From a virus (taxonomy: Duplodnaviria; Heunggongvirae; Uroviricota; Caudoviricetes), in the IMG/VR virus record IMGVR_UViG_3300032303_001313, positions 81,172 through 145,171 of that record: a DNA stretch of 64,000 bases; one strand, 5' to 3'. The position numbers and the translations under genes are program-made. Below are positions 3,783-59,384 of this stretch, one piece after another. A model generated the notes under the pieces. That model had not been told where the DNA came from. It saw nothing but the letters and a program-made list of their open reading frames with translations, and did not search any database. The first letter of the stretch is position 1. Each line of letters starts with the position of its first letter.

Positions 3783-5384
3783 TTAAACCTCATGGATATT
3801 GTCAACTATAAATGAGGAATCATTTCCATCCACTTTGCCACAAAACATTAAATTATTGCCCTCATATAAGATGTATTTGAATTGTTCTCTAACTTTTGGG
3901 AAAATGAGAACGCTATCTAACATACAGGTTTCATCCTCTATAGTTAAAAAGCACATTATTTTACCCTTAGATTCCCCCTTCGCTATAGTGTGTTCTGTTA
4001 CTCTTTGAATATTAGCAACAATGCATATGTTTTGCCCCTTCCTACCATTCACAATTTCTTTACAGGTTGTATTAGATGCAGAAGTATCTGTAGTCTCTAC
4101 TTTTGTCATACTAACTGGACAACCTAAGAATTTAACTTCTTGATCTATAACCCAACTAGGATCATCTTCTAAACTATAGGGCGGATTGATAAGTAGACTA
4201 ATTTCATTTATGACTACTTGTTTACGATCTGCTTTAAAAGTTCCTCCACCCTCTTTTTTGGTTGGGGCCAAATCCTTGAGACAGTCTACAAAGTTACCCC
4301 ATTTTTTAGTTGGATAATTGTTGACCACCCAAGTTTGTTCTGCCTTTGTTAAAGCCCTGTATATTTCGTACTCGTATAGAGCCTTGTTTCTACTCACAGC
4401 ACCCTTAAATCCCCTAAAGAATCCTATTGATGCTAGAGTTTTAAACGCAGTTGAACTAATACGCGATCCAAGGTAAATCAGAATCTCTACCCAAGTAAAC
4501 TTATCAATAGATTTCCCAACTTCTTTTTCGCATTCTGCTACTGCTTCTATTAACTTATCGCCGCTAGTGCCGGTTAGTGACTTTATATCTTTGATCCCAA
4601 AGTAAATCTTACCATTACGAATATTGAACTTTGTTTTGAAGTTGGTTATATTTGGAGTTTTAGTCTCAATATCAAATAGTTTGGCCTCAGATATTAATTC
4701 GTGAACTTCTTGGTGTGGGTCTGGCTTTTCATTCGCATAGTATAGGTAAGACAAAAAGAACTCTTGTGGATAATGGGCCTTGTAATATGCGCTCCAGTAT
4801 GAACACACGGCATATGAAACACTGTGAGACTTATTAAAGGCGTATCTTGATGATTTTTCAATCCATCCGAAAATCTCTTCTGCTTCTTCTTTTGTTACAA
4901 TACCAACACGTTCAGCACCAGCGATGAAAGACTTTTTAACCTCATTCATAAGGTCTGCTCTTTTCTTACCAATCGCTTTTCTAAGAACGTCTGCTTCTTG
5001 TAGATTGAATCCTGCCACCTTTTCAGCAATACGCATAGATTGCTCTTGATAAACAAGAACACCATAAGTTGGCTTGAGAATATCTTCTAGAATAGGATGT
5101 AAATATGTAACATCTTCACGCCCATGCTTTCTATCTACATAATGCTGTGTCATGCTTTTTCCATCAACAAAAGCCTTCAATGTTCCGGGTCTGATGATGG
5201 CAATAAGTGCAGATAATTCTTCTATGTTGTTTGGTGCTACTTTTTTAGACCAATTTTTACCTAGATTACTCTCTAATTGGAAGACTCCCTTAGTTCTTCC
5301 ATCAGCAAATAATTGCCAAGTTTTAGCATCATCATACTTAATATCACTTAACATACAAATTCCCGTCAGCAAACGCTTTGTCAA
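3783..5384 (-). CDS. dnaE: DNA polymerase III alpha subunit, C-terminal portion (fingers, beta-binding, OB)
   Basis: VFQLES, RPG, HGRE..YLHP..LE.TYG..VYQEQ, GKK and NKSHS..YA motifs are collinear with E. coli DnaE residues about 780-1100. Confidence 0.8.
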   Translation of the reverse strand: MTKRLLTGICMLSDIKYDDAKTWQLFADGRTKGVFQLESNLGKNWSKKVAPNNIEELSALIAIIRPGTLKAFVDGKSMTQHYVDRKHGREDVTYLHPILEDILKPTYGVLVYQEQSMRIAEKVAGFNLQEADVLRKAIGKKRADLMNEVKKSFIAGAERVGIVTKEEAEEIFGWIEKSSRYAFNKSHSVSYAVCSYWSAYYKAHYPQEFFLSYLYYANEKPDPHQEVHELISEAKLFDIETKTPNITNFKTKFNIRNGKIYFGIKDIKSLTGTSGDKLIEAVAECEKEVGKSIDKFTWVEILIYLGSRISSTAFKTLASIGFFRGFKGAVSRNKALYEYEIYRALTKAEQTWVVNNYPTKKWGNFVDCLKDLAPTKKEGGGTFKADRKQVVINEISLLINPPYSLEDDPSWVIDQEVKFLGCPVSMTKVETTDTSASNTTCKEIVNGRKGQNICIVANIQRVTEHTIAKGESKGKIMCFLTIEDETCMLDSVLIFPKVREQFKYILYEGNNLMFCGKVDGNDSSFIVDNIHEV

Positions 5385-6024
5385 AATTCATGTTTTGGTA
5401 TACTGCTCTATGAGTCTTCATTAGTTTAATAAATATGTTGGCTTCATCTTTTACGTCCTGTAAGGCATCGTGAGCATTTTCTAGTGAAAGTCCCATTCGT
5501 TCACGCAAAGAATCCATGCTAATAGACTTAACACCGGGATCGCTCTCTGTCCAAGCAAATATATTATCCATAATATCGAACTTGTATATCTTACTAAATA
5601 GTTTCTGATGATCACGTTCATTATCCCAAGGCCCGTACTCTTTACATAAACGATTGATGATAATTAAGTCGAAACCAATAATGTTAAATCCAACAGGAAT
5701 TGGGTTAAAAAATGGCTCGCCCTTCCAATTATAAGCAAGAACAAATTTGGCAAACTTTGACCATACAGATTCTAAAGAAGGGGCTTTTATAAGTTGCTCT
5801 CTAGTCTTTTGAGTTACTTTTAAAGCACCGTCTTCTACTGGATCAAATCCAGCAGCAATAGCCTTTTCGTCATCAAGTATTGGTTTAATTTCACTATTGA
5901 ATTGACCTTTAACTTTTAAGGTTCTACCATCAATTGCCAAAGCGGCCAATTGTGTTGGTTGAGTTTTATGAGGATTTCTACTTCCGCTCTCAAAATCGAA
6001 CACAATAAAATCTCTGTTAGCCAT
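5344..6024 (-). CDS. DnaQ-like DEDDh 3'-5' proofreading exonuclease
   Basis: Exo I FDFES, Exo II IGFD and Exo III H..DALQD motifs. The start ATG overlaps the stop of upstream dnaE-N (AATGGCTAA). Confidence 0.75.
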   Translation of the reverse strand: MANRDFIVFDFESGSRNPHKTQPTQLAALAIDGRTLKVKGQFNSEIKPILDDEKAIAAGFDPVEDGALKVTQKTREQLIKAPSLESVWSKFAKFVLAYNWKGEPFFNPIPVGFNIIGFDLIIINRLCKEYGPWDNERDHQKLFSKIYKFDIMDNIFAWTESDPGVKSISMDSLRERMGLSLENAHDALQDVKDEANIFIKLMKTHRAVYQNMNFDKAFADGNLYVK

Positions 6025-7684
6025 TTGTTGCTCCTGTTAATTCTTCTATGTACATCAATTTATCAAGTAAATTAATCGCTAAAATATCTAACTTTGGACG
6101 CCCTAATGCTTCTAATGCTGACATTTCTAGTCCTACAATCTTTTCATCTGTTCCATCTTGGCATACCATTGGGCATACCTCTTCTAAAGGTTCAGCAGAA
6201 ATAACAACTCCCGCCGGATGCTTTCCCTTAGATTTGTATGTTCCTTCAATCTTTATTGCTTGATCAAAGAACTCTGCATAATCGCCCTCAAGTTTGCCAT
6301 CTTCTGATATTCTACAAAAGTCCTTAAGTTCTTCTGAGTTGTTGATTAATGCCCACTTTATGATAGAACGATCTTCTTTATACATTTCTTCTAACTGGTC
6401 AGAGATTCTAGCCTCGTCTGGAATACAGTTACTAATAGCGTTCATTTCTGCAAAAGAACAGGCTTCATTAACACGCAATACTTCTTTGATAGCACTCTTA
6501 CCCTGTAAACTACCTAATGTGATCATTTGGCTTACATGGTTATGACCATACTTTTCTTTTAGGTAAGCAATAACCTCGTCACGCTTATTACCGGGAACAT
6601 CTATATCAATATCTGGTAGAGAAACATAATCGGCAGTATTTCTACCAGCATTATAGAATCTGGCAAATAGTAAGTCGAATTCAATAGGGTCGATTTTGGT
6701 GATACCAATTAGATAAGAAATCAAACAACCAGCAGCCGATCCTCTTCCCGGCCCAGTTAACCAGTCGCGACTATTAACGTAATGTATGATATCTTGCACA
6801 ACCAAAAAATACCCGAATAGAGTAGCATTCTTGATTACTTCAAACTCTTCTTTAAATCTATCTAAATATCTTGTTTTTACTGTTTCATCTTTGACCTTAC
6901 TTTGATCCACAAGTAATTTCTTCCAACCTTTTCTGCATAGTTCTTTTAAGTATTCTTCTTCTGATAAGTTGTTTGGGCATGGGAATTTTGGAAGAATTGG
7001 CTTGCTAAGAATGTTGTAATCTTCGCACTGATTACGAATTTGGTCTAATACTTTAGTATCTTTAGACTTAGACTCTTCTTTATCAAGAACGTAAAAAGTG
7101 TCATGAATAAAGAAGTCAACTTTGTCTACTAGTTTGTTTTCGGAAATAGACTTCCTAATTTGGGGAAGTGTTGTTTTCATTTCAGAGCAAAGTAGTATTC
7201 TATGTAGTTTAGCGTCTTGCTGATCTACATAATAACTAGGATCGCAATTTGTAAAGTCTTTTCCGCTTAAAACGTAGAAGTTATTGTTCTTCGATATTGT
7301 TGCTAAGTCTTGCTGCAATTGTCCATTTTTATCTAATGATGATACTAACTTGATTAAGTCAAACCATCCATTTTTGTTCTTTACAAATACTGCAAAATCA
7401 TCAAAAGAGCAACCAATTATGGGCTTAATTCCGCCCTCTTTGCAGGCTTGAAAGAATTCAACTGTTCCAGCAATAGTCTTATAGTCGCATATTCCGCAAG
7501 TATCGTAGCCATTTTCTTTGCACTTCTTTACTAAATGCTCTGGTTTAGAGTAAGCATTGCGTAAACTGTAGTGAGTATAATTCCTAAGAGGAAACCAAGA
7601 CATATTCTTCCTTTGTAAAAACTTTAACGTAACACAACTTGTTATACCGCCTTGGGGCCATAAGTTAATATGACCCCCATTCAA
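6017..7684 (-). CDS. dnaE: DNA polymerase III alpha subunit, N-terminal portion (PHP domain and palm)
   Basis: PHP motif HYSLRNA..; palm GPGRGSAAGCLISYLIGIT..DP..FDLLFARF..PDIDIDV; HPAGVVIS; ends at the KLDILAINLL (FDFLGLRTL-equivalent) fingers segment. Confidence 0.8.
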   Translation of the reverse strand: MNGGHINLWPQGGITSCVTLKFLQRKNMSWFPLRNYTHYSLRNAYSKPEHLVKKCKENGYDTCGICDYKTIAGTVEFFQACKEGGIKPIIGCSFDDFAVFVKNKNGWFDLIKLVSSLDKNGQLQQDLATISKNNNFYVLSGKDFTNCDPSYYVDQQDAKLHRILLCSEMKTTLPQIRKSISENKLVDKVDFFIHDTFYVLDKEESKSKDTKVLDQIRNQCEDYNILSKPILPKFPCPNNLSEEEYLKELCRKGWKKLLVDQSKVKDETVKTRYLDRFKEEFEVIKNATLFGYFLVVQDIIHYVNSRDWLTGPGRGSAAGCLISYLIGITKIDPIEFDLLFARFYNAGRNTADYVSLPDIDIDVPGNKRDEVIAYLKEKYGHNHVSQMITLGSLQGKSAIKEVLRVNEACSFAEMNAISNCIPDEARISDQLEEMYKEDRSIIKWALINNSEELKDFCRISEDGKLEGDYAEFFDQAIKIEGTYKSKGKHPAGVVISAEPLEEVCPMVCQDGTDEKIVGLEMSALEALGRPKLDILAINLLDKLMYIEELTGATNG

Positions 7685-43704: not shown

Positions 43705-44082
43705 TCAAACGATTTCATTTAAAGCCTTTTCCAACTCTTCCAAATTTATCTTGTTTTCTATATTTTCAATAGTACGTTTATTCGTGCTATGGGTGTGTTC
43801 CATATGGCAATTACAGCACATTACGCGACACTTCTTTATTTCGCTGATTAACTCTTCAACACTATGTCTTTTGTGGTACAATCTATACATTCCACCAGCA
43901 CAAGTACGTTTGGAACACCCGTTCTTAGTTACTTCTGCTTTTTCAAATTCTGGTAAATGATCAAAACATAGGGCAGATGGATGTTTGTTATACTTACAAA
44001 TGCAGCAACCAACCGACACCTTGTATATATCGACTAATTCATGCCTACGTTTTATTATCTCAGAACTTGTCACATTAACCAC
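43705..44082 (-). CDS. HNH endonuclease (zinc-finger HNH)
   Basis: CCICKYNKHPSALCFDHLPE...CCNCH pattern. Confidence 0.5.
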   Translation of the reverse strand: MVNVTSSEIIKRRHELVDIYKVSVGCCICKYNKHPSALCFDHLPEFEKAEVTKNGCSKRTCAGGMYRLYHKRHSVEELISEIKKCRVMCCNCHMEHTHSTNKRTIENIENKINLEELEKALNEIV

Positions 44083-44344
44083 TTACCGCAATATCATTTG
44101 GAATTAAGTTGGGAATTAAACATTGCATTGTAGTAAAAGTTGATGGATTACTAAGTATAGTAGACCTTGTTGGAGTCTTCTTATCAAATACTAGTTTGAT
44201 ATGATCCCTTATGATCTGAATTTGCTCTTTGGATAGTTCAGATACATTACTTAGTTCTAAATATCCTTGTAACCAATATATAAAGTTTTCTGGCGTCATA
44301 ATATTCTCCTTATTTATTGTATCACTGCTGTTTGCCATTGTCAA
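44075..44344 (-). CDS. hypothetical protein
   Basis: ORF. Confidence 0.3.
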   Translation of the reverse strand: MTMANSSDTINKENIMTPENFIYWLQGYLELSNVSELSKEQIQIIRDHIKLVFDKKTPTRSTILSNPSTFTTMQCLIPNLIPNDIAVSG

Positions 44345-44897
44345 GCCTGCTCCATACGTTCTTACAAAAATCTATTACTTCATCATCTGAAAAAGTATTT
44401 TTAGCATAGTTATATATCAAAGCAACGAATCTTACATTACCTTCAATGTATCCAATAGAGTTATCTATTCTATCTAGTGACGCTTGATATGGCGTATGAT
44501 GATTAAGTTTTAGAGTTAATTCTATTCCACTAATAGAACATTTACCATCTTGTTTTTCCCAAAGGTCTTTTAGATATTGTGGTGTAATGTTAACATTGTA
44601 ATTTTTTGTGCTTTCTATTTCTCTACGCTTGGCTCTGTTAACAAATGGCTTAAATGGACTAAGTTCATCTTTAGTTCTACCGCCACATTTCAAAGTCCAT
44701 ACTGGAAAAGGTTCGTATGATTTAAGATGATCGCAAGATGCTTTTCCAGCACAGTTCCTGCTACAATAAAAAATCTTTCTTCCTTTACGCTGTTGTCTTT
44801 CTATTTCTTTGGCATTCTTAGTAGATTCTATGCCACAATAATCGCATATGATACTAATTGTTTTTTTCATGATTGTTTCCTCCACAGTATTATACAC
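44322..44897 (-). CDS. HNH homing endonuclease (HNH_3-type; paralogue of 35633..36166)
   Basis: KCSISGIEL...ASLDRIDNSIGYIEGNVRFV; N-terminal CDYCG...C zinc knuckle. Confidence 0.6.
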   Translation of the reverse strand: MYNTVEETIMKKTISIICDYCGIESTKNAKEIERQQRKGRKIFYCSRNCAGKASCDHLKSYEPFPVWTLKCGGRTKDELSPFKPFVNRAKRREIESTKNYNVNITPQYLKDLWEKQDGKCSISGIELTLKLNHHTPYQASLDRIDNSIGYIEGNVRFVALIYNYAKNTFSDDEVIDFCKNVWSRLDNGKQQ

Positions 44898-44927
44898 ACA
44901 AAACGGTGGAGACGCACTAAAAAATAA

Positions 44928-45277
44928 GTGGAGGCGTTGAGATTTGAACTCAAGTCCAGAGTAATTTCAATACAAACTTCTACATCCTTAGTTAATTGTT
45001 ATCGTACAACTAAACAAAACTAACAGAATTATCTGTGTCAGATTGAGTACAATCATCATCCTCATTTATGTTTGGTGAGGCTACCATATCCGATTATCGG
45101 AGTCAGCATGATTGGGCAATACGGTTCATACCACCGCACTCTTGCCTAACTGGGTCAGGCAGCGAGAGCGAAACGAGTTTCGCCAATTAACATTTCAATC
45201 GACTTTTATACTGGCCGGTCGATTAACCAGTGGATGCCATCTATATCTACGTTTACCTGTCGATACCTTTCGCCCCC
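44928..45277 (-). ncRNA. ssrA: tmRNA (SsrA); encoded tag ends ...FALAA
   Basis: Minus strand. The 5' GGGGGCGAAAGGUAUCGACAGG matches the tmRNA 5' consensus GGGG..GG.UUCGAC.GG. The 3' T-arm UUGAGUUCAAAUCUCAA plus acceptor CGCCUCC pairs with the 5' GGGGGCG (one G.U). Internal frame GGC GAA ACU CGU UUC GCU CUC GCU GCC UGA encodes GETRFALAA followed by stop. Confidence 0.7.
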
Positions 45278-45284
45278 GTTTGTT

Positions 45285-45665
45285 TTATTTTAGAAATTTA
45301 AGAAGGTTGTCGGCCCCCTTATATCCTACCGCTCTACCTACCTCTTTTCCACCTTGGAATTTTACGAATGATGGTATGCTCTTTATGTTATACCCCTCAA
45401 CAATGTCTTTTTCCTTGTCGAAGTCAATTTCAATTATGGTGTAAGACTTTAGTTCTTCGGACAAATCCTTGTTTTGTTGCATATCTCTCTGAGCAATTTG
45501 GCAAAAGTGACACCATTTTGCTGAGAAAATTATTAGTGTTTTGTCTTCTTTTTCAACACTAAATGCTGTTACTGCCGACAAAACTAGTGCAAGAAAAAGG
45601 CCCAGTATAACGAATTTGTTCATAAATTGTCTCCACAATGTAAGTCGCTTCCATACTTTATACAC
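45285..45665 (-). CDS. periplasmic thioredoxin-like protein
   Basis: N-terminal TM/signal (FVILGLFLALVLSAVTA) and a WCHFCQ CxxC active site. Confidence 0.65.
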   Translation of the reverse strand: MYKVWKRLTLWRQFMNKFVILGLFLALVLSAVTAFSVEKEDKTLIIFSAKWCHFCQIAQRDMQQNKDLSEELKSYTIIEIDFDKEKDIVEGYNIKSIPSFVKFQGGKEVGRAVGYKGADNLLKFLK

Positions 45666-46032: not shown

Positions 46033-46105
46033 AGCAGCAGAAGGGAATCGAACCCTCAACAGCCAGATTGGAAATCTAGTACTCTACCAGTTGAGTTACT
46101 GCTGC
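46033..46105 (-). tRNA. tRNA-Gly (anticodon UCC)
   Basis: Hand-folded cloverleaf on the minus strand: acceptor GCAGCAG/CUGCUGC, D-stem ACUC/GAGU, anticodon stem CUAGA/UCUGG, loop UUUCCAA, T-arm GAGGG-UUCGAUU-CCCUU, discriminator U. Confidence 0.7.
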
Positions 46106-46383
46106 ACTTCTTCTAGGTGTGGATACCTGTCTCCAACATTATACTCGTCCCATTCGGATTTGTCAAGGTAGACCGTTTCACTTTCTCCATTCTTCGAAAA
46201 AGTAAGCAAGTATTTTGCTTGTACATGAACATCATAAGGAAGAATAAGATCGCCAATAATTACGAATGAACATTCGTTGTGGGCGGGGATAATCCGCTTA
46301 TTAGTTACATTCCCGTCATCTATACATCCAACCATTAGTGCTAGGGATACTAATAGTAGCCCTATTGTGTTAATCATTTTCAT
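46096..46383 (-). CDS. lipoprotein
   Basis: MKMINTIGLLLVSLALMVGC signal peptide and lipobox. Confidence 0.4.
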   Translation of the reverse strand: MKMINTIGLLLVSLALMVGCIDDGNVTNKRIIPAHNECSFVIIGDLILPYDVHVQAKYLLTFSKNGESETVYLDKSEWDEYNVGDRYPHLEEVQQ

Positions 46384-48636: not shown

Positions 48637-49146
48637 TCATGGCTTATAGTTCACAACAATTACTTTAAGATTTGAAAGTTCTTTCTCAATTATCTTCTCT
48701 ATTCTGTTCCAATCTCCACCTGCTAATCCTGCTCCAATTTTAGGCATACCTATAGTTTTACCACTAACGAATATTTGATTAATTTTTCTCATGCAAACTG
48801 TAAATGCTTCGTAATCAAAAGGTTCAACATCGCCGTCAGAATGATTCTTACCATACTTATACTGAGTATAAGCATTAACAACAGCAACTTGTTTGTCATA
48901 GTTAGATTTTTCGCTAAAACATACATCACAATATTTGTAATCTATATTACCTAATTTATTGATAGTTGGGCCTTCTCGTTCCATACGAAATTTATCACAA
49001 CCAAAAGCCTTTGCCATTTGTGGAGCAATTCCGGCCCCCATTGTGCTAAAGCAATTACATCCATGAACAACAATATCAAAATGTCCTTCTTGGGCAAGTT
49101 TAATCAAATCCCCGTCTATGTATTCAATCACTTCCTTTTTCTCCAA
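48637..49146 (-). CDS. macro domain protein (ADP-ribose binding/processing)
   Basis: IVVHGCNCFSTMGAGIAPQMAKAFG matches the macro-domain VNAAN...GGGV motif; later GIGAGLAGG. Confidence 0.65.
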   Translation of the reverse strand: MEKKEVIEYIDGDLIKLAQEGHFDIVVHGCNCFSTMGAGIAPQMAKAFGCDKFRMEREGPTINKLGNIDYKYCDVCFSEKSNYDKQVAVVNAYTQYKYGKNHSDGDVEPFDYEAFTVCMRKINQIFVSGKTIGMPKIGAGLAGGDWNRIEKIIEKELSNLKVIVVNYKP

Positions 49147-50270: not shown

Positions 50271-51107
50271 TTAACAACTACGCAGCATTCCGCAGTAATA
50301 AGAGTCTATCTTACTACACGAAACTGGTTTGTCAACAGATCGCAGTATGGTTTCTTTACAAAAAGTATTCAATGTAACATCATCTTGAGGTATTGTCTTA
50401 ACGGGCAAATCTTTAACTATTCTAGAATACAAGTCTATTTTTTCTCTTAAATATTCATTAAGACAGTGTATTCTGTCGCCTTCGTCAAGTTCAGCCCCAC
50501 TCTTTTTTCTAACTAACAAATCATTTACCTTGTCTTTTATCTCAGTATCATGTAGTTCGTTTTGAAGTAGAGTATCAAACAACATAGGAGCATGAGTTTT
50601 GGTGCGGAATATCCATGAACAGCACAAAACTGGCCTAAGAACATAAAAGTATTTCTTAAGTTTTACACTATCCTTTTGCAAGAATAAGTCGAAGTTATTT
50701 CGGGCCATGTGTAAATAGTGATAAATACTACTCTTAGGATCAAAAAACTTTTCTCTTAAACTTCGTAGTTTATTGATGAACGTATCATCTTGGCTATAGA
50801 TTATGGGGCTATCTAACCACTCTAAAAGACAAGGATTACTCTTAGCAAATAATCGCAAACTCTTTTTAAGTTCCCACCCACTAAAGTCAAGATCATTCTC
50901 ATTAATCATCTTTTCAATAGTATCTTTTAAGTTGTTACTAATACTAAAATAATAGTCAAGATTATTAACATACAAGAATCTAACATCGTAATCACTGTTT
51001 ATGCTGCTAAATCCCCATGCTCTACTGCCGCTTTCAACAGCATATAGAATCTTGATCTTACGTTCTTTTTCAAGAAGGCTAAGATTATGTATGATATTTG
51101 GTGTCAT
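50271..51107 (-). CDS. pol-beta-superfamily nucleotidyltransferase (minimal NTase; PF10127/RlaP-like)
   Basis: YAVESGSRAWGFSSINSDYDVRF has the G-S-x9-13-D-x-D NTase signature; a third acidic residue lies in DLDFSGWEL. Confidence 0.5.
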   Translation of the reverse strand: MTPNIIHNLSLLEKERKIKILYAVESGSRAWGFSSINSDYDVRFLYVNNLDYYFSISNNLKDTIEKMINENDLDFSGWELKKSLRLFAKSNPCLLEWLDSPIIYSQDDTFINKLRSLREKFFDPKSSIYHYLHMARNNFDLFLQKDSVKLKKYFYVLRPVLCCSWIFRTKTHAPMLFDTLLQNELHDTEIKDKVNDLLVRKKSGAELDEGDRIHCLNEYLREKIDLYSRIVKDLPVKTIPQDDVTLNTFCKETILRSVDKPVSCSKIDSYYCGMLRSC

Positions 51108-53906: not shown

Positions 53907-54062
53907 TTGTAAATGAACTTAAAGGAAATAAAAGCAGCATTTCAATCTTATAGAAACCCTGCCGAAACTTTACGGAAGTTGATTATGGGAATACCCGCGA
54001 TCCCAACCTTTCGGCATCAACATTTTCATTATACCACGCTAGAGCAAGTTGTCAATCACCGC

Positions 54063-56429: not shown

Positions 56430-57983
56430 TTACCAACTCAACCTTTTGTGTTCTAGACGATCTCTAATATCTTTTAGATTATGGTCTACACAAAGTTCAC
56501 CATTTTTATAAACAATCTCTAGTTCGCCCAGTTTTTCTTCTTCAATCGACACTTCATCAAATAGAACATATTTATTATTAATCACTTCGATCTTGAGCAA
56601 TCCCTTGGCACTCTTTTTAAGTCCATCGTCTGTTACAGGGTCTTTGAAGATATTTCTATTTTCACCATCAACAACACAATATGTACTCTTAACAGCAATA
56701 CCTAGACTATCTCTAGTATTATAGTTGTATGTATAACTGCCGATACCGAATACTACGTTATTGCTTGCAAAACCCTTTCTTTCTAGTCTCTTACAAATTT
56801 CGTCTGCTCTTTGTAGCGAAATACTATCGCCATAGATTACTCCGATATGACTATCCAATACCTTATAGCCCTTGCTGTTAATTGTGCCGCCAAAAACGTC
56901 CCACAATAGTTCAACAACACCCTTAATTTCAGGACTATTTGTTTTAATTGGTTTGCTATCAGCACGAACTAAATAGTTCCCAGACCATCTTTCAACAATA
57001 TCGTCTACATGATAGAGTTCTCCATTAATATTTTGAGTTTCAAAACCACAAACAATATCAACAGGATCACCGCTATCTGGTCGAATAACCAGTTTTCCAT
57101 CACGACTAAGAATCTTGTCTTTAAGTTTAGTGACAAATGTGGTACAAACTTCCCACAAATCAAAACTATCGCTAACAATACTCACAATGCCGCTAGGAAA
57201 AGTATCTAGAATTCTATCAAAACTATCTAGTTCGTTTTCTTTTCCGTAACTTGTCATTATGCTATGTTCTGTAGCAGGAACACTACTACCAATCAATTCT
57301 TTAGTTATATCAGCATTGTAATATTCTTCTAGCATAAAAACGCTAGGAATAGTATCAGTACCAGTAAAACTAAGCAAATGTCCCGCTTGATTAAAGGTGC
57401 TTTCTGTGCTACTTCTTCCTCGTTGAGCAAAATCGTGTCCCTGCCATTGTACAAAACTAGTATCGTCGCAAGTTTTATTTGCGTGTTCTGTTAGCAACTT
57501 TTTATATTGGTATGCAATTGTAGCATTAACACAACAGTCCCAAATAGTGGTACTCATTTGAGTTTCTAGAAAGTTAACTAGCCATGCAAAATCACGATGA
57601 GTATTAGTAATTGTGAAGAAAGGAATCTTCTCATTAACTAGCGAACCTTCTGGTAACGCTTTAATCTTAATAGGAAGATAGCCCAAGTTATGCAACTTCG
57701 TAATATGATCTGTTGGCATATCATAAAAACTAAAGTGTTTGTGAAATCGCTTAAATTGTGCCAGCACTTCTTCTAGTGGCCTATTGAAAAAGTTCTCATT
57801 CCACTGATTAATTAGGTATTCTTTGATGTAGTATTGCAGACCAAAAAATACTGCTTTGTCGCATTTTAGGTGCTTATAACTACGGGGAGTCATATTACTA
57901 TAAAGTTTAGTAATTCCTTTTGGATACATCATCCAGTGAAACTGTTTATAAGAATCACTTAGAAGAATTGGTAGAATTTGCAT
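56430..57983 (-). CDS. nicotinamide phosphoribosyltransferase-like enzyme (NAMPT family; Namat-like of NARP1)
   Basis: 517 aa; C-terminal FGIGSYTYNYNTRDSLGIAVKST...FKDPVTDDGLKKSAKGLL matches the NAMPT FKDPV.D...KKS.KG region. Confidence 0.75.
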   Translation of the reverse strand: MQILPILLSDSYKQFHWMMYPKGITKLYSNMTPRSYKHLKCDKAVFFGLQYYIKEYLINQWNENFFNRPLEEVLAQFKRFHKHFSFYDMPTDHITKLHNLGYLPIKIKALPEGSLVNEKIPFFTITNTHRDFAWLVNFLETQMSTTIWDCCVNATIAYQYKKLLTEHANKTCDDTSFVQWQGHDFAQRGRSSTESTFNQAGHLLSFTGTDTIPSVFMLEEYYNADITKELIGSSVPATEHSIMTSYGKENELDSFDRILDTFPSGIVSIVSDSFDLWEVCTTFVTKLKDKILSRDGKLVIRPDSGDPVDIVCGFETQNINGELYHVDDIVERWSGNYLVRADSKPIKTNSPEIKGVVELLWDVFGGTINSKGYKVLDSHIGVIYGDSISLQRADEICKRLERKGFASNNVVFGIGSYTYNYNTRDSLGIAVKSTYCVVDGENRNIFKDPVTDDGLKKSAKGLLKIEVINNKYVLFDEVSIEEEKLGELEIVYKNGELCVDHNLKDIRDRLEHKRLSW

Positions 57984-58222: not shown

Positions 58223-58507
58223 TTAATGCCTCAAATTTTTACTATCTTCCCACTTAGTGTATTGTGAGCCAAAAACCGTTATCATAACCTTGTCATACAT
58301 ATAGTCCAGATAATCATCATCCCATCGGCCATTATTAATTGAATCTCTAACCTTAAGAGCATATTGAATAATAGGACTCCAATTTTGGTATTCTGTTATT
58401 ATAGGAAGTTCTTGTTCTGTTTTTCTTCGTTCAAGTTCTTTTTCAAGATCAGTAGTAGAAAAATCTCTGATATCAACAATGGTATCAACAATCATATTAT
58501 TCTCCAA
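58223..58507 (-). CDS. hypothetical protein
   Basis: ORF. Confidence 0.3.
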   Translation of the reverse strand: MENNMIVDTIVDIRDFSTTDLEKELERRKTEQELPIITEYQNWSPIIQYALKVRDSINNGRWDDDYLDYMYDKVMITVFGSQYTKWEDSKNLRH

Positions 58508-59384
58508 ATGTAGTTGCTAGAGCGTCCAAACAATCGTAAACAATAATGTTATTACACTCATTTTTGACCGCCCCTTGCAAACTATTTGTTGTATAAACCT
58601 TATTAAAGGCTGTTAATACAATATCTTTTCCTCTTGTAAAAGACGAATGAGTAACCCACAAGTCCATAGTTATGTTATTAAATTTCTTATGAAATTCATG
58701 AGCCAACATAACATGAGTACCAAATCCTGTACCAATATCATCAACTAGTAATAGTTTCTTACAATTAAGGTCTATATCTGGTATTGTTGGGTTGCTCAAC
58801 TGACCAGTAGCAGGATCACGATTTTTTGTACATATATGAATTGGAAGATTCAATGCTTGACTCCATTGTTCGCATCTATTTAATGCCCCCTTATCTGGAC
58901 AAATAATACCATCATACTTATTATTTTTTAGGTTATGAGCATAATTATACGAACCAATATTTTCTACTGTTGTTGCATAGTTATTAAAGAGTTCTTCAAA
59001 AATGTCAGAGTGAATATCCAAACATTGTATGTGAAAATCAATTCCCATATCCCAATCTACACTAGTCAAAAACTTAGTAAAAACCCTTAGCGAAAAAGGT
59101 TGATTAGTAGTTGATGCTCGGTCTTGTCTAGCATGAGGAACATAAGGAATATAAAGGTTAACGCTTTTAGGAGAGTTATTAGATATAACATCAGTTAACA
59201 ATCCTATTTTCATTAGTTCAGCATCATTTTCATACTTCCACACTATAACAACATCTTGTTGATTTGTCATTTCAGAATCAAACTTAACAAAACTTTCTCC
59301 ATCAGGGAAGTTTAGGAATTCCAAATGTTTAGGATAAGTTCTTTCTAAGAGACTATTGTTGTTTTTTATGTATACATTAATCAT
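58497..59384 (-). CDS. ribose-phosphate pyrophosphokinase-like enzyme (PRPP synthetase family; Adps-like of NARP1)
   Basis: NLYIPYVPHARQDRA (Prs PYxxYARQDR) and the LLLVDDIGTGFGT PRPP-binding loop. Confidence 0.75.
   Translation of the reverse strand: MINVYIKNNNSLLERTYPKHLEFLNFPDGESFVKFDSEMTNQQDVVIVWKYENDAELMKIGLLTDVISNNSPKSVNLYIPYVPHARQDRASTTNQPFSLRVFTKFLTSVDWDMGIDFHIQCLDIHSDIFEELFNNYATTVENIGSYNYAHNLKNNKYDGIICPDKGALNRCEQWSQALNLPIHICTKNRDPATGQLSNPTIPDIDLNCKKLLLVDDIGTGFGTHVMLAHEFHKKFNNITMDLWVTHSSFTRGKDIVLTAFNKVYTTNSLQGAVKNECNNIIVYDCLDALATTFGE

Follow-up and report, generated by a model that had tools for sequence, protein, structure and literature searches.

A 64,000-nt stretch of an uncultured virus of the Caudoviricetes (IMG/VR record IMGVR_UViG_3300032303_001313, positions 81,172 to 145,171), referred to here as the window, contains on its minus strand, at positions 44928 to 45277, a segment that an earlier note, made from the sequence alone, had taken for a transfer-messenger RNA (tmRNA, the product of ssrA) with a tag ending in FALAA. 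The question raised by this locus is whether it is a working tmRNA gene of the phage itself, or bacterial ssrA sequence that was carried along or left behind. The segment is a phage-encoded, structurally intact one-piece tmRNA gene. Judged from its sequence and from that of its viral relatives, it is also likely to be a functional gene that belongs to the phage genome.

Identification of the tmRNA gene

44928..45277, minus strand: tmRNA (ssrA) gene, one-piece, 350 nt (ARAGORN; Rfam RF00023)

ARAGORN calls a tmRNA at exactly these coordinates, with the tag GETRFALAA followed by a stop codon and a coding part at nt 94-123 (nucleotide n of the RNA lies at window coordinate 45278-n). The Rfam covariance model RF00023 matches 44926..45277(-) over its full length (model positions 1-374 of 374) with 99.3 bits, compared with a gathering score of 47, and E = 1.4e-37. 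This is far beyond both threshold and chance, and the 350-nt minus-strand tmRNA proposed earlier is borne out. The richness in GC relative to the surroundings is found as well, 0.42 in 45000-45449 compared with 0.31-0.35 in most flanking 300-nt segments. A single-sequence fold of the tmRNA gives -104.6 kcal/mol (z = -3.7 relative to shuffled sequences), with the acceptor stem, T-arm and helix 2 closed. Compared with the RF00023 family, the RNA has the expected features except for an encoded CCA, which is dispensable, and its PK3/PK4 region (pseudoknots 3 and 4) is partly resolved. The annotation of 44928..45277(-) is thus ssrA, non-coding.

The structure was tested on two alignments of related tmRNAs, one of 12 sequences (50-93% identical) and one of a close subgroup of 9 sequences. 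In the 12-sequence alignment 89.2% of the cells are paired, compared with 35-43% in slid controls, and 45 pairs show a compensatory change; the corresponding values for the 9-sequence subgroup are 96.3%, 32-36% and 28 pairs. The observed paired fraction, compensatory counts and covariation score were matched by 0 of 500 shuffles in each alignment. The count of further pair types is less decisive, as it was reached by 1 of 500 shuffles (12 sequences) and by 77 of 500 (9 sequences).

The tRNA-like part and the ends of the RNA

45271..45277, minus strand: acceptor stem, 5′ strand GGGGGCG (nt 1-7); G3 pairs with the U at nt 346 (U70 in tRNA numbering)
44929..44936, minus strand: acceptor stem, 3′ strand CGCCUCC (nt 342-348), and discriminator A (nt 349), read in the sequence
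44937..44953, minus strand: T-arm, stem UUGAG/CUCAA (nt 325-329 / 337-341) and loop UUCAAAU (RF00023 alignment)

The 5′ end of the tmRNA reads GGGGGCGAAAGGUAUCGACAGG. This 5′ end, the T-arm, the acceptor pairing and the lack of an encoded CCA, all described in the earlier note, were each read in the sequence at these positions. CCA is not encoded because the sequence that follows discriminator A is CUU. Since CCA can be added after transcription, this does not exclude the RNA from the tmRNAs. Two of the relatives, L278 and L286, encode CCA, unlike the window.

The pairing of the 5′ and 3′ ends is conserved in related phages. All 44 family members compared share the acceptor pairs G1-C, G2-C and G3·U and the discriminator A73, and positions 4-7 covary, for example in GGGCUAG/CUAGUCC, GGGUGCG/CGCAUCC and GGGCCGG/CCGGUCC. 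The acceptor stems were counted by an anchored script, since MAFFT misaligns the 5′ end where linker lengths differ; 3 of the 44 rows in this list look mis-parsed, and the invariance of pairs 1-3 is unaffected. The alanine identity elements G3·U70 and A73 are in place, and charging with alanine is predicted.

The T-arm has a 5-bp stem and a 7-nt UUCRANY loop. All cells of the stem pair, with compensatory changes in 3-4 of the 5 pairs; variants include GCGAG/CUCGC in L053 and AUGAG/CUCAU in L280. An odd T-arm, GCGAU-UUUCGAAG-AUCGC, with an 8-nt loop and no GUUC, is present in L278:5551-5900 and L286:5307-5660, both of which ARAGORN misses.

The messenger part

45155..45184, minus strand: tag frame GETRFALAA, resume codon GGC at 45182-45184, stop codon UGA at 45155-45157 (ARAGORN)
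45139..45166, minus strand: helix 5 (nt 112-114 / 137-139 and 118-124 / 128-134), with the stop codon inside

The tag frame that had been proposed, GGC GAA ACU CGU UUC GCU CUC GCU GCC UGA (GETRFALAA and stop), is located at 45184..45155. The frame-setting nucleotides are U-5 at 45189 and A-4 at 45188, in the context UAAUU followed by GGC ... GCC UGA. The context of the resume codon is as expected for a tmRNA: none of the 44 aligned family members departs from U89 (U-5), A90 (A-4) or G94, with which the resume codon begins. U-5 and A-4 correspond to U85 and A86 of E. coli tmRNA, where A86 is essential and sets the reading frame together with U85 (PMC2481249).

The 27 tag-coding nt are identical in 5 of 5 aligned sequences with the GETRFALAA tag (the window, L053, L280, L272 and L281), and were read as identical in L276, L278 and L286 too, which are loci detected by Rfam only. 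The tag and its coding nt are unchanged while the GETRFALAA tmRNAs are 79-94% identical overall, with differences of up to ~20% outside this stretch. From these comparisons the tag-coding stretch appears to be the most conserved part of the RNA. Helix 5 pairs in 98-100% of cells in the close subgroup, and its length is variable in more distant relatives.

Helices and pseudoknots

45232..45259, minus strand: helix 2, 5′ strand (nt 19-46), partner nt 291-321
44957..44987, minus strand: helix 2, 3′ strand (nt 291-321), including the conserved AUGUAGA
45197..45231, minus strand: pseudoknot 1 (PK1), ACUGG/CCAGU (nt 47-51 / 64-68) and AAUCGAC/GUCGAUU (nt 54-60 / 75-81)
45105..45137, minus strand: PK2, nt 141-145 / 153-157 and 146-152 / 167-173
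44992..45101, minus strand: 3′ ring, consisting of hairpin A (nt 177-181 / 185-189), PK3 (nt 192-195 / 202-205 and 198-201 / 215-218), hairpin 10 (nt 224-228 / 233-237), hairpin B (nt 242-246 / 251-255) and helix 11 (nt 265-272 / 279-286)

Helix 2 is the long helix that joins the tRNA-like part to the pseudoknot ring. Its pairs are 19-21 / 319-321, 22-25 / 314-317, 31-39 / 301-309 and 41-46 / 291-296; 87-100% of cells pair, and there are several compensatory pairs, e.g. C45-G292, which is replaced by U-A or G-C.

PK1 sits between helix 2 and the resume codon and has two interleaved stems with 99-100% of cells paired. Both stems show compensatory changes in the 12-sequence alignment; within the 9-sequence subgroup only stem 2 covaries, stem 1 being unchanged throughout. 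The layout of PK1 closely mirrors that of E. coli PK1. One relative with the same tag (L272:1760-2149, 82% identical) has a 37-nt insertion in the PK1 loop that contains a perfect hairpin (GCUUGGUGUUUCUUUAAAGAAACACCAAGC).

PK2 displays compensatory changes in 7 of 7 pairs of its second stem and in 3 of 5 pairs of its first (12-sequence alignment). In the 3′ ring, the second stem of PK3, hairpin 10, hairpin B and helix 11 each have 91-100% of cells paired and 3-5 compensatory pairs (9-sequence subgroup). The PK4 region consists of three covarying hairpins or helices, and interleaved pairing was not demonstrated there in either alignment. The pseudoknot fold suggested by the earlier note therefore stands, with compensatory changes, for PK1, PK2 and most of the 3′ helices, and is only partly resolved at the weak first stem of PK3 and in the PK4 region.

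Comparison with L053 points the same way. The window and L053 tmRNAs differ at 26 positions, of which 15 are unpaired, 4 are in two compensatory T-stem pairs, 5 keep the pairing and 2 break a pair. Taken together, the gene appears to have all the sequence-level determinants of a working tmRNA, and selection appears to maintain both its structure and its tag.

In L286, L281 and L276 the 5′ half of the tmRNA through PK2 is up to 94% identical to that of the window, and the part that corresponds to 44992..45101, from PK3 to helix 11, differs in sequence but forms the same set of helices, as if a module had been exchanged within the tmRNA gene.

Viral relatives and conserved position of the tmRNA

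45285..45623, minus strand: thioredoxin-fold gene (PF00085, E = 4.5e-13), with its stop codon 7 nt before the tmRNA 5′ end

The IMG/VR collection was scanned with sequence patterns. A loose pattern for the tRNA-like part yielded two contigs, L053 (128,858 bp) and L131, whose tmRNA is 92.6% identical to that of the window and has the same tag. At least 120 viral contigs match a pattern for the PK1 motif. Of the 120 PK1-motif loci listed, 63 have a tmRNA call by ARAGORN; among the loci that it misses, 14 of 14 sampled (within L159-L269) have a full-length Rfam tmRNA with 76-127 bits. Probably all 120 listed loci are tmRNAs, and viral tmRNA counts that are based on ARAGORN may be about two-fold too low for this family.

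The 43 distinct tmRNAs called by ARAGORN are 325-365 nt long and 50-93% identical to the window tmRNA. GETQLALAA is the commonest tag among them, and others are GTNQLALAA, AEKQFALAA, GKTTLALAA, AEPSFAIAA and similar ones. A scan of metagenomes for sequences coding for GETRFALAA gave 8 more loci (5 by ARAGORN and 3 by Rfam alone) with 79-94% identity.

The genes around the tmRNA are related as well. The fetched flanks of at least 67 of the 120 listed PK1-motif loci contain homologues of window proteins (ThyX, thioredoxin, trypsin-like protease, rIIA, rIIB). L053/L274, L278 and L286 share with the window the gene order thioredoxin, tmRNA, variable slot, 138-aa protein, trypsin-like protease, ..., ThyX, rIIA, rIIB; their proteins are 46-84% and their tmRNAs 88-94% identical to those of the window. 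The neighbouring thioredoxin mentioned in the earlier note is confirmed by the PF00085 match of the upstream open reading frame, and the same adjacency of thioredoxin and tmRNA is seen again in those related loci for which it could be scored. The gap between the two is ~0-21 nt in relatives; in L053 the tmRNA directly follows the open reading frame, and in the GETQLALAA subgroup, with tmRNAs of only ~55% identity, 3-21 nt separate the end of the thioredoxin gene from the tmRNA. Because synteny and the thioredoxin junction persist in diverged relatives, the tmRNA appears to have been fixed in this phage lineage for a long time rather than acquired recently.

An exact 3′-end pattern search and an SPFH protein search of IMG/VR gave no match. 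At the SPFH-related loci L002-L008 (54-85% identity) the genes are arranged differently and the flank contains no tmRNA, so that these loci yielded no comparative data. No match was found among cultured phages by megablast and blastn with the region and the tmRNA. When the tmRNAs of two other family members were used, matches were limited to the last 30-65 nt of unrelated phage tmRNAs or of attachment sites. What is new here is the size and coherence of an uncultured viral family, and its fixed thioredoxin-tmRNA junction, with no cultured representative in the collection searched.

The matches to attachment sites bring up the possibility that the locus is the remnant of an integration site: a temperate phage whose insertion target is the tmRNA gene of its host would carry an attachment site derived from ssrA. 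Prophages that integrate into ssrA are common, and the viral collection includes an attR match (Pseudomonas phage) and a match beside an integrase (Moorella phage). Attachment sites, however, hold the 3′ part of ssrA alone, and the window has a full gene with 5′ half, pseudoknots and tag. In addition, no integrase is present among the strong Pfam matches in the window, which makes a virulent lifestyle plausible, and the genome carries rIIA/rIIB and a full replication module. An integration remnant is thus extremely unlikely, and the locus is better read as a complete gene of the phage.

Bacterial tmRNAs and the host

The window tmRNA shares with bacterial one-piece tmRNA, as in E. coli, the G3·U70 tRNA-like part, helix 2, PK1 before the resume codon, U-5/A-4, a short tag that ends in ALAA, the stop codon in helix 5 and a 3′ pseudoknot ring, which is partly resolved here. 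It differs in being phage-encoded and in its length (350 nt, compared with 361-399 nt for the bacterial tmRNAs obtained in this analysis). It also has a linker between acceptor stem and GG that is shorter by 2 nt, an AU-rich T-stem and no encoded CCA, and part of the PK3/PK4 region consists of simple hairpins with GAUAA loops. Unlike the E. coli type, the resume codon is GGC (Gly) rather than GCN and the tag has only 9 codons.

The tag is of a kind found in Bacteroidota. SsrA tags of this phylum (GETNYALAA, and GETNFALAA and GETSFALAA in metagenome-assembled genomes, MAGs) likewise have 9 residues, start with G-E-T and end with an aromatic residue and ALAA. Bacteroides GETNYALAA has 7 of 9 residues in common with GETRFALAA, and the resume codon is GGC in both. 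The native Bacteroides tag drives strong degradation (bioRxiv 10.1101/2025.03.18.644028). A bacterial scan for sequences coding for GET-x-F-ALAA, with one genome per species and a pattern that was chosen with the Bacteroidota idea in mind, gave 19 tmRNAs, of which 17 are from Bacteroidota or Chlorobiota MAGs.

These similarities of the tag could be expected if the gene were a passenger, that is, a host ssrA recently acquired by illegitimate recombination, with no role for the phage and in decay. The window tmRNA is, however, only 44-50% identical over the whole RNA to the bacterial tmRNAs with the most similar tags, and the 5′ tRNA-like part differs, with GGGGGCGAAAGGUAUCGAC in the window tmRNA and GGGGCUGAC.GGUUUUGAC in Bacteroidota. 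The tmRNA is found in the same genomic place in many diverged phages and displays compensatory evolution, neither of which fits a recent and decaying acquisition. A Bacteroidota host is also a poor fit to the expression signals of the window, which has a Shine-Dalgarno core in 56 of 90 open reading frames, compared with 12% background, and perfect sigma-70 promoters. We therefore regard a passenger as very unlikely and continue with a maintained phage gene.

The same observations bear on the identity of the host. Bacteroidota make little use of Shine-Dalgarno sites or of -35/-10 promoters of the TTGACA/TATAAT type. A Bacteroidota host is disfavoured because of the high Shine-Dalgarno use and the perfect sigma-70 promoters of the window. 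A Bacteroidota host, as the tag alone would indicate, was not accepted, given also the 44-50% identity of the RNA, its different 5′ part and the bias of the scan pattern. The host signals conflict: the tag is of the Bacteroidota type, and the expression signals and the 5′ part do not look like those of Bacteroidota.

Relation to known phage tmRNAs

To our knowledge, phage-borne tmRNAs have been listed for twenty years with no function demonstrated. They are present in Bxz1-group mycobacteriophages and in Bacillus phage G (PMC4131195), and complete ssrA genes are found in lytic-type phage genomes, usually near tRNAs and with no described function (PMC4131195; PMC1475703). In one survey tmRNA was found in 402 of 18,146 phage genomes (PMC9004378). 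The matches obtained with tmRNAs of family members include annotated tmRNAs in Streptomyces phages (e.g. Daubenski) and in Caulobacter phages. Similarity of such cultured-phage tmRNAs to the window family is limited to the last ~30 nt of the tRNA-like part, and the tags differ (e.g. ANSKFAFALAA).

Two groups of phages offer closer parallels. In the OM43 phage Melnitz and the pelagimyophages a tmRNA is likewise conserved across an uncultured or aquatic myophage group, and the roles suggested for it are upkeep of the hijacked translation machinery or tagging of host proteins (PMC9004378). Those tmRNAs are circularly permuted, two-piece, and accompanied by a glutamine riboswitch, whereas the window tmRNA is one-piece, and no riboswitch or other Rfam family gave a match near it at E <= 1. 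Huge phages carry tmRNA plus SmpB (Al-Shayeb et al. 2020) and are likewise large uncultured phages with translation-rescue genes. They differ in that SmpB was not found here or near related tmRNAs, and in that the contigs that carry the present phage are ~105-145 kb and not huge.

The family offers a comparative handle on such genes. With at least 120 viral contigs it is a large family whose members have diverged deeply, although genomic position and tag are conserved, and no SmpB was found with it. It could thus reveal which features a phage keeps when it plugs into the rescue machinery of its host.

Proposed expression and function

46033..46105, minus strand: tRNA-Gly(UCC) (ARAGORN; Rfam 66.1 bits), 756 nt upstream of the tmRNA
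46138..46166, minus strand: sigma-70 consensus TTGACA-17-TATAAT, candidate promoter, 12/12 matches, 33 nt upstream of tRNA-Gly
54028..54055, minus strand: second perfect sigma-70 consensus, 12/12 matches

The tRNA-Gly that had been placed about 750 bp from the tmRNA is present at a distance of 756 nt. Perfect sigma-70 sites were defined as TTGACA and TATAAT with a 16- or 17-nt spacer. Sites with at least 11 of 12 matches number 11, compared with 4.25 expected from shuffles, and 7 of the 11 are on the coding strand.

Most likely, the tmRNA is transcribed together with tRNA-Gly, small open reading frames and thioredoxin upstream of it, and this transcript may start from the consensus at 46166..46138. 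RNase P would generate the 5′ end of the tmRNA. As the thioredoxin stop codon is 7 nt from the tmRNA, this cleavage would reduce the 3′ untranslated region of the thioredoxin message to almost nothing. Trimming would form the 3′ end of the tmRNA, to which a host enzyme would add CCA, as CCA is not encoded here or in 57 relatives. Host alanyl-tRNA synthetase (AlaRS) would then charge the tmRNA with alanine via G3·U70 and A73, and host SmpB and EF-Tu would deliver it to ribosomes that have run to the 3′ end of a broken message and stalled there. GGC would be the codon at which translation resumes, in the frame fixed by U-5/A-4, the nascent chain would gain (A)GETRFALAA, and the ribosome would terminate at UGA. 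An ALAA end is a classic degron of the ClpXP type, and the tagged protein would be directed by it to proteases of this type. Presumably SmpB, AlaRS and the CCA-adding enzyme are all those of the host. The benefit to the phage is a guess: added rescue capacity while host and phage messages are being cleaved may free ribosomes and recycle amino acids. Phage tmRNAs of this kind may provide extra rescue capacity or may redirect tagging.

Several observations weigh against a functional gene that is fixed in the lineage. The first stem of PK3 is the weakest element of the structure, with 75% of cells paired in the 9-sequence subgroup. The T-stem of the window is unusually AU-rich, with 2 G-C among 5 pairs, and an encoded CCA was found in 0 of 57 family members examined. 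A dedicated promoter is not apparent between the thioredoxin stop codon and the tmRNA 5′ end, since the 7-nt gap leaves no room for one, and no terminator was found by a scan near the tmRNA. The tmRNA was not seen in the 3-10 kb flanks fetched from SPFH-related phages (81-85% identity), and it is probably not universal in the group. Finally, no SmpB was found in the window by phmmer, tblastn or Pfam, nor in 10 kb past one contig end and in 2.15 Mb of related-locus flanks. (The tblastn query was an E. coli SmpB sequence; as a control it matched an SmpB in a bacterial locus at E = 4e-33.) Since no SmpB was found, the phage tmRNA would depend on host SmpB.

Dependence on the host pool is also what would be seen if the RNA were an inhibitor or decoy. 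Such an RNA would compete with host tmRNA for SmpB, AlaRS or stalled ribosomes, and so shut down or re-route trans-translation; in one version host tmRNA would be kept from sensing or limiting the infection. With no SmpB of its own found, the phage RNA must share the pool of the host, and a possible precedent is a molecule of mycobacteriophage DS6A that consists of the tRNA-like domain (TLD) only and may inhibit tmRNA by titrating SmpB (PMC4131195). For a pure decoy an intact messenger part would be superfluous. The RNA nevertheless retains U-5/A-4, the resume codon, the 9-codon frame, the ALAA end and a stop codon within helix 5. The decoy reading also leaves unexplained why the tag-coding stretch is the best-conserved region. 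A decoy is thus unlikely, and a tmRNA that takes part in tagging is the preferred reading.

A more specific role in counter-defence may be put forward tentatively, and we regard it as doubtful. Here a lineage-wide, vertically inherited tmRNA behind thioredoxin, with 9-residue tags of the form x-x-x-x-[F/L]-A-[L/I/M]-A-A, would release ribosomes that RNA-cleaving immunity or phage-induced decay of messages has brought to a halt, alongside RlaP and NAD-salvage (nicotinamide adenine dinucleotide) genes.

Genome and neighbouring genes

44322..44870, minus strand: endonuclease VII / HNH-like (His-Me finger) open reading frame, directly downstream of the tmRNA (PHROG matches)
44075..44344: 89-aa open reading frame that follows the endonuclease VII / HNH-like one
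43705..44082: second HNH open reading frame (PHROG matches alone)

The genome context is that of an uncultured large phage. Almost all genes of the window are on the minus strand, and they include rIIA, rIIB, a DnaB-like helicase, a Toprim primase and a RecA/UvsX-like recombinase. Nucleotide metabolism is represented by ribonucleotide reductase, ThyX, dUTPase and dCMP deaminase; further genes encode PhoH, RlaP, NAMPT, a PRPP-synthetase-like protein and a Macro-domain protein. No close cultured phage was found: there is no nucleotide match, and identity to proteins of known phages does not exceed 31-40% for rIIA and ~35% for Pol III alpha. The thioredoxin has a hydrophobic, signal-peptide-like N-terminus and a C-H-F-C active-site motif.

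The HNH endonuclease that the earlier note had placed beside the tmRNA holds at the level of PHROG families (endonuclease, endonuclease VII and HNH). The open reading frame at 44322..44870 matches phrog_3322 (2.3e-24), phrog_1035 (3.3e-17) and phrog_3118 (2e-10), has no Pfam family match, and is endonuclease VII/His-Me-finger-like.

The 5′ leader of this gene, 44868..44912(-), can form a possible 7-bp hairpin UCUCCAC...GUGGAGG that would bury the GGAGG ribosome-binding site and place TATAAT in its loop. The fold does not reach significance (z = -1.4). The leader recalls the hairpin-plus-internal-promoter control of T4 gene 49 and I-TevI.

The slot downstream of the tmRNA varies among relatives, and in L053 it holds a tRNA and a different HNH gene. 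A class-II tRNA of 87 nt is found 34 nt downstream of the tmRNA in some relatives, where ARAGORN assigns it to Ser with anticodon ACU (L053:7011-7097, L131, L273 and L274). L234, L194 and L196 show an 87-nt Rfam tRNA match with no anticodon call, which lies within ~20 nt of the tmRNA in L234 and L194 and ~600 nt off in L196. A34 is unusual for a serine tRNA. The matching slot in the window holds the endonuclease genes.

RlaP, an RNA-repair-pathway nucleotidyltransferase (PF10127, E = 2.3e-80), is encoded at 50271..51107(-), ~5 kb upstream of the tmRNA. The presence of RlaP and PhoH in the window suggests a theme of RNA maintenance. The Macro-domain protein, NAMPT and the PRPP-synthetase-like protein, at 48637..49146, 56430..57983 and 58497..59384 (all on the minus strand), form an NAD-salvage-like set, to which the relative L006 adds Nudix proteins. 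Gene sets for NAD salvage have been linked to the countering of NAD-depleting defences.

The replicative polymerase is Pol III alpha, at 3783..7684(-), which displays PHP, DNA_pol3_alpha and finger domains and is split into two open reading frames. An RNase_T-family exonuclease open reading frame of 226 aa (5347..6024) lies between the two and overlaps each of them. The arrangement is reminiscent of PolC, here divided into three genes that are separate or frameshifted.

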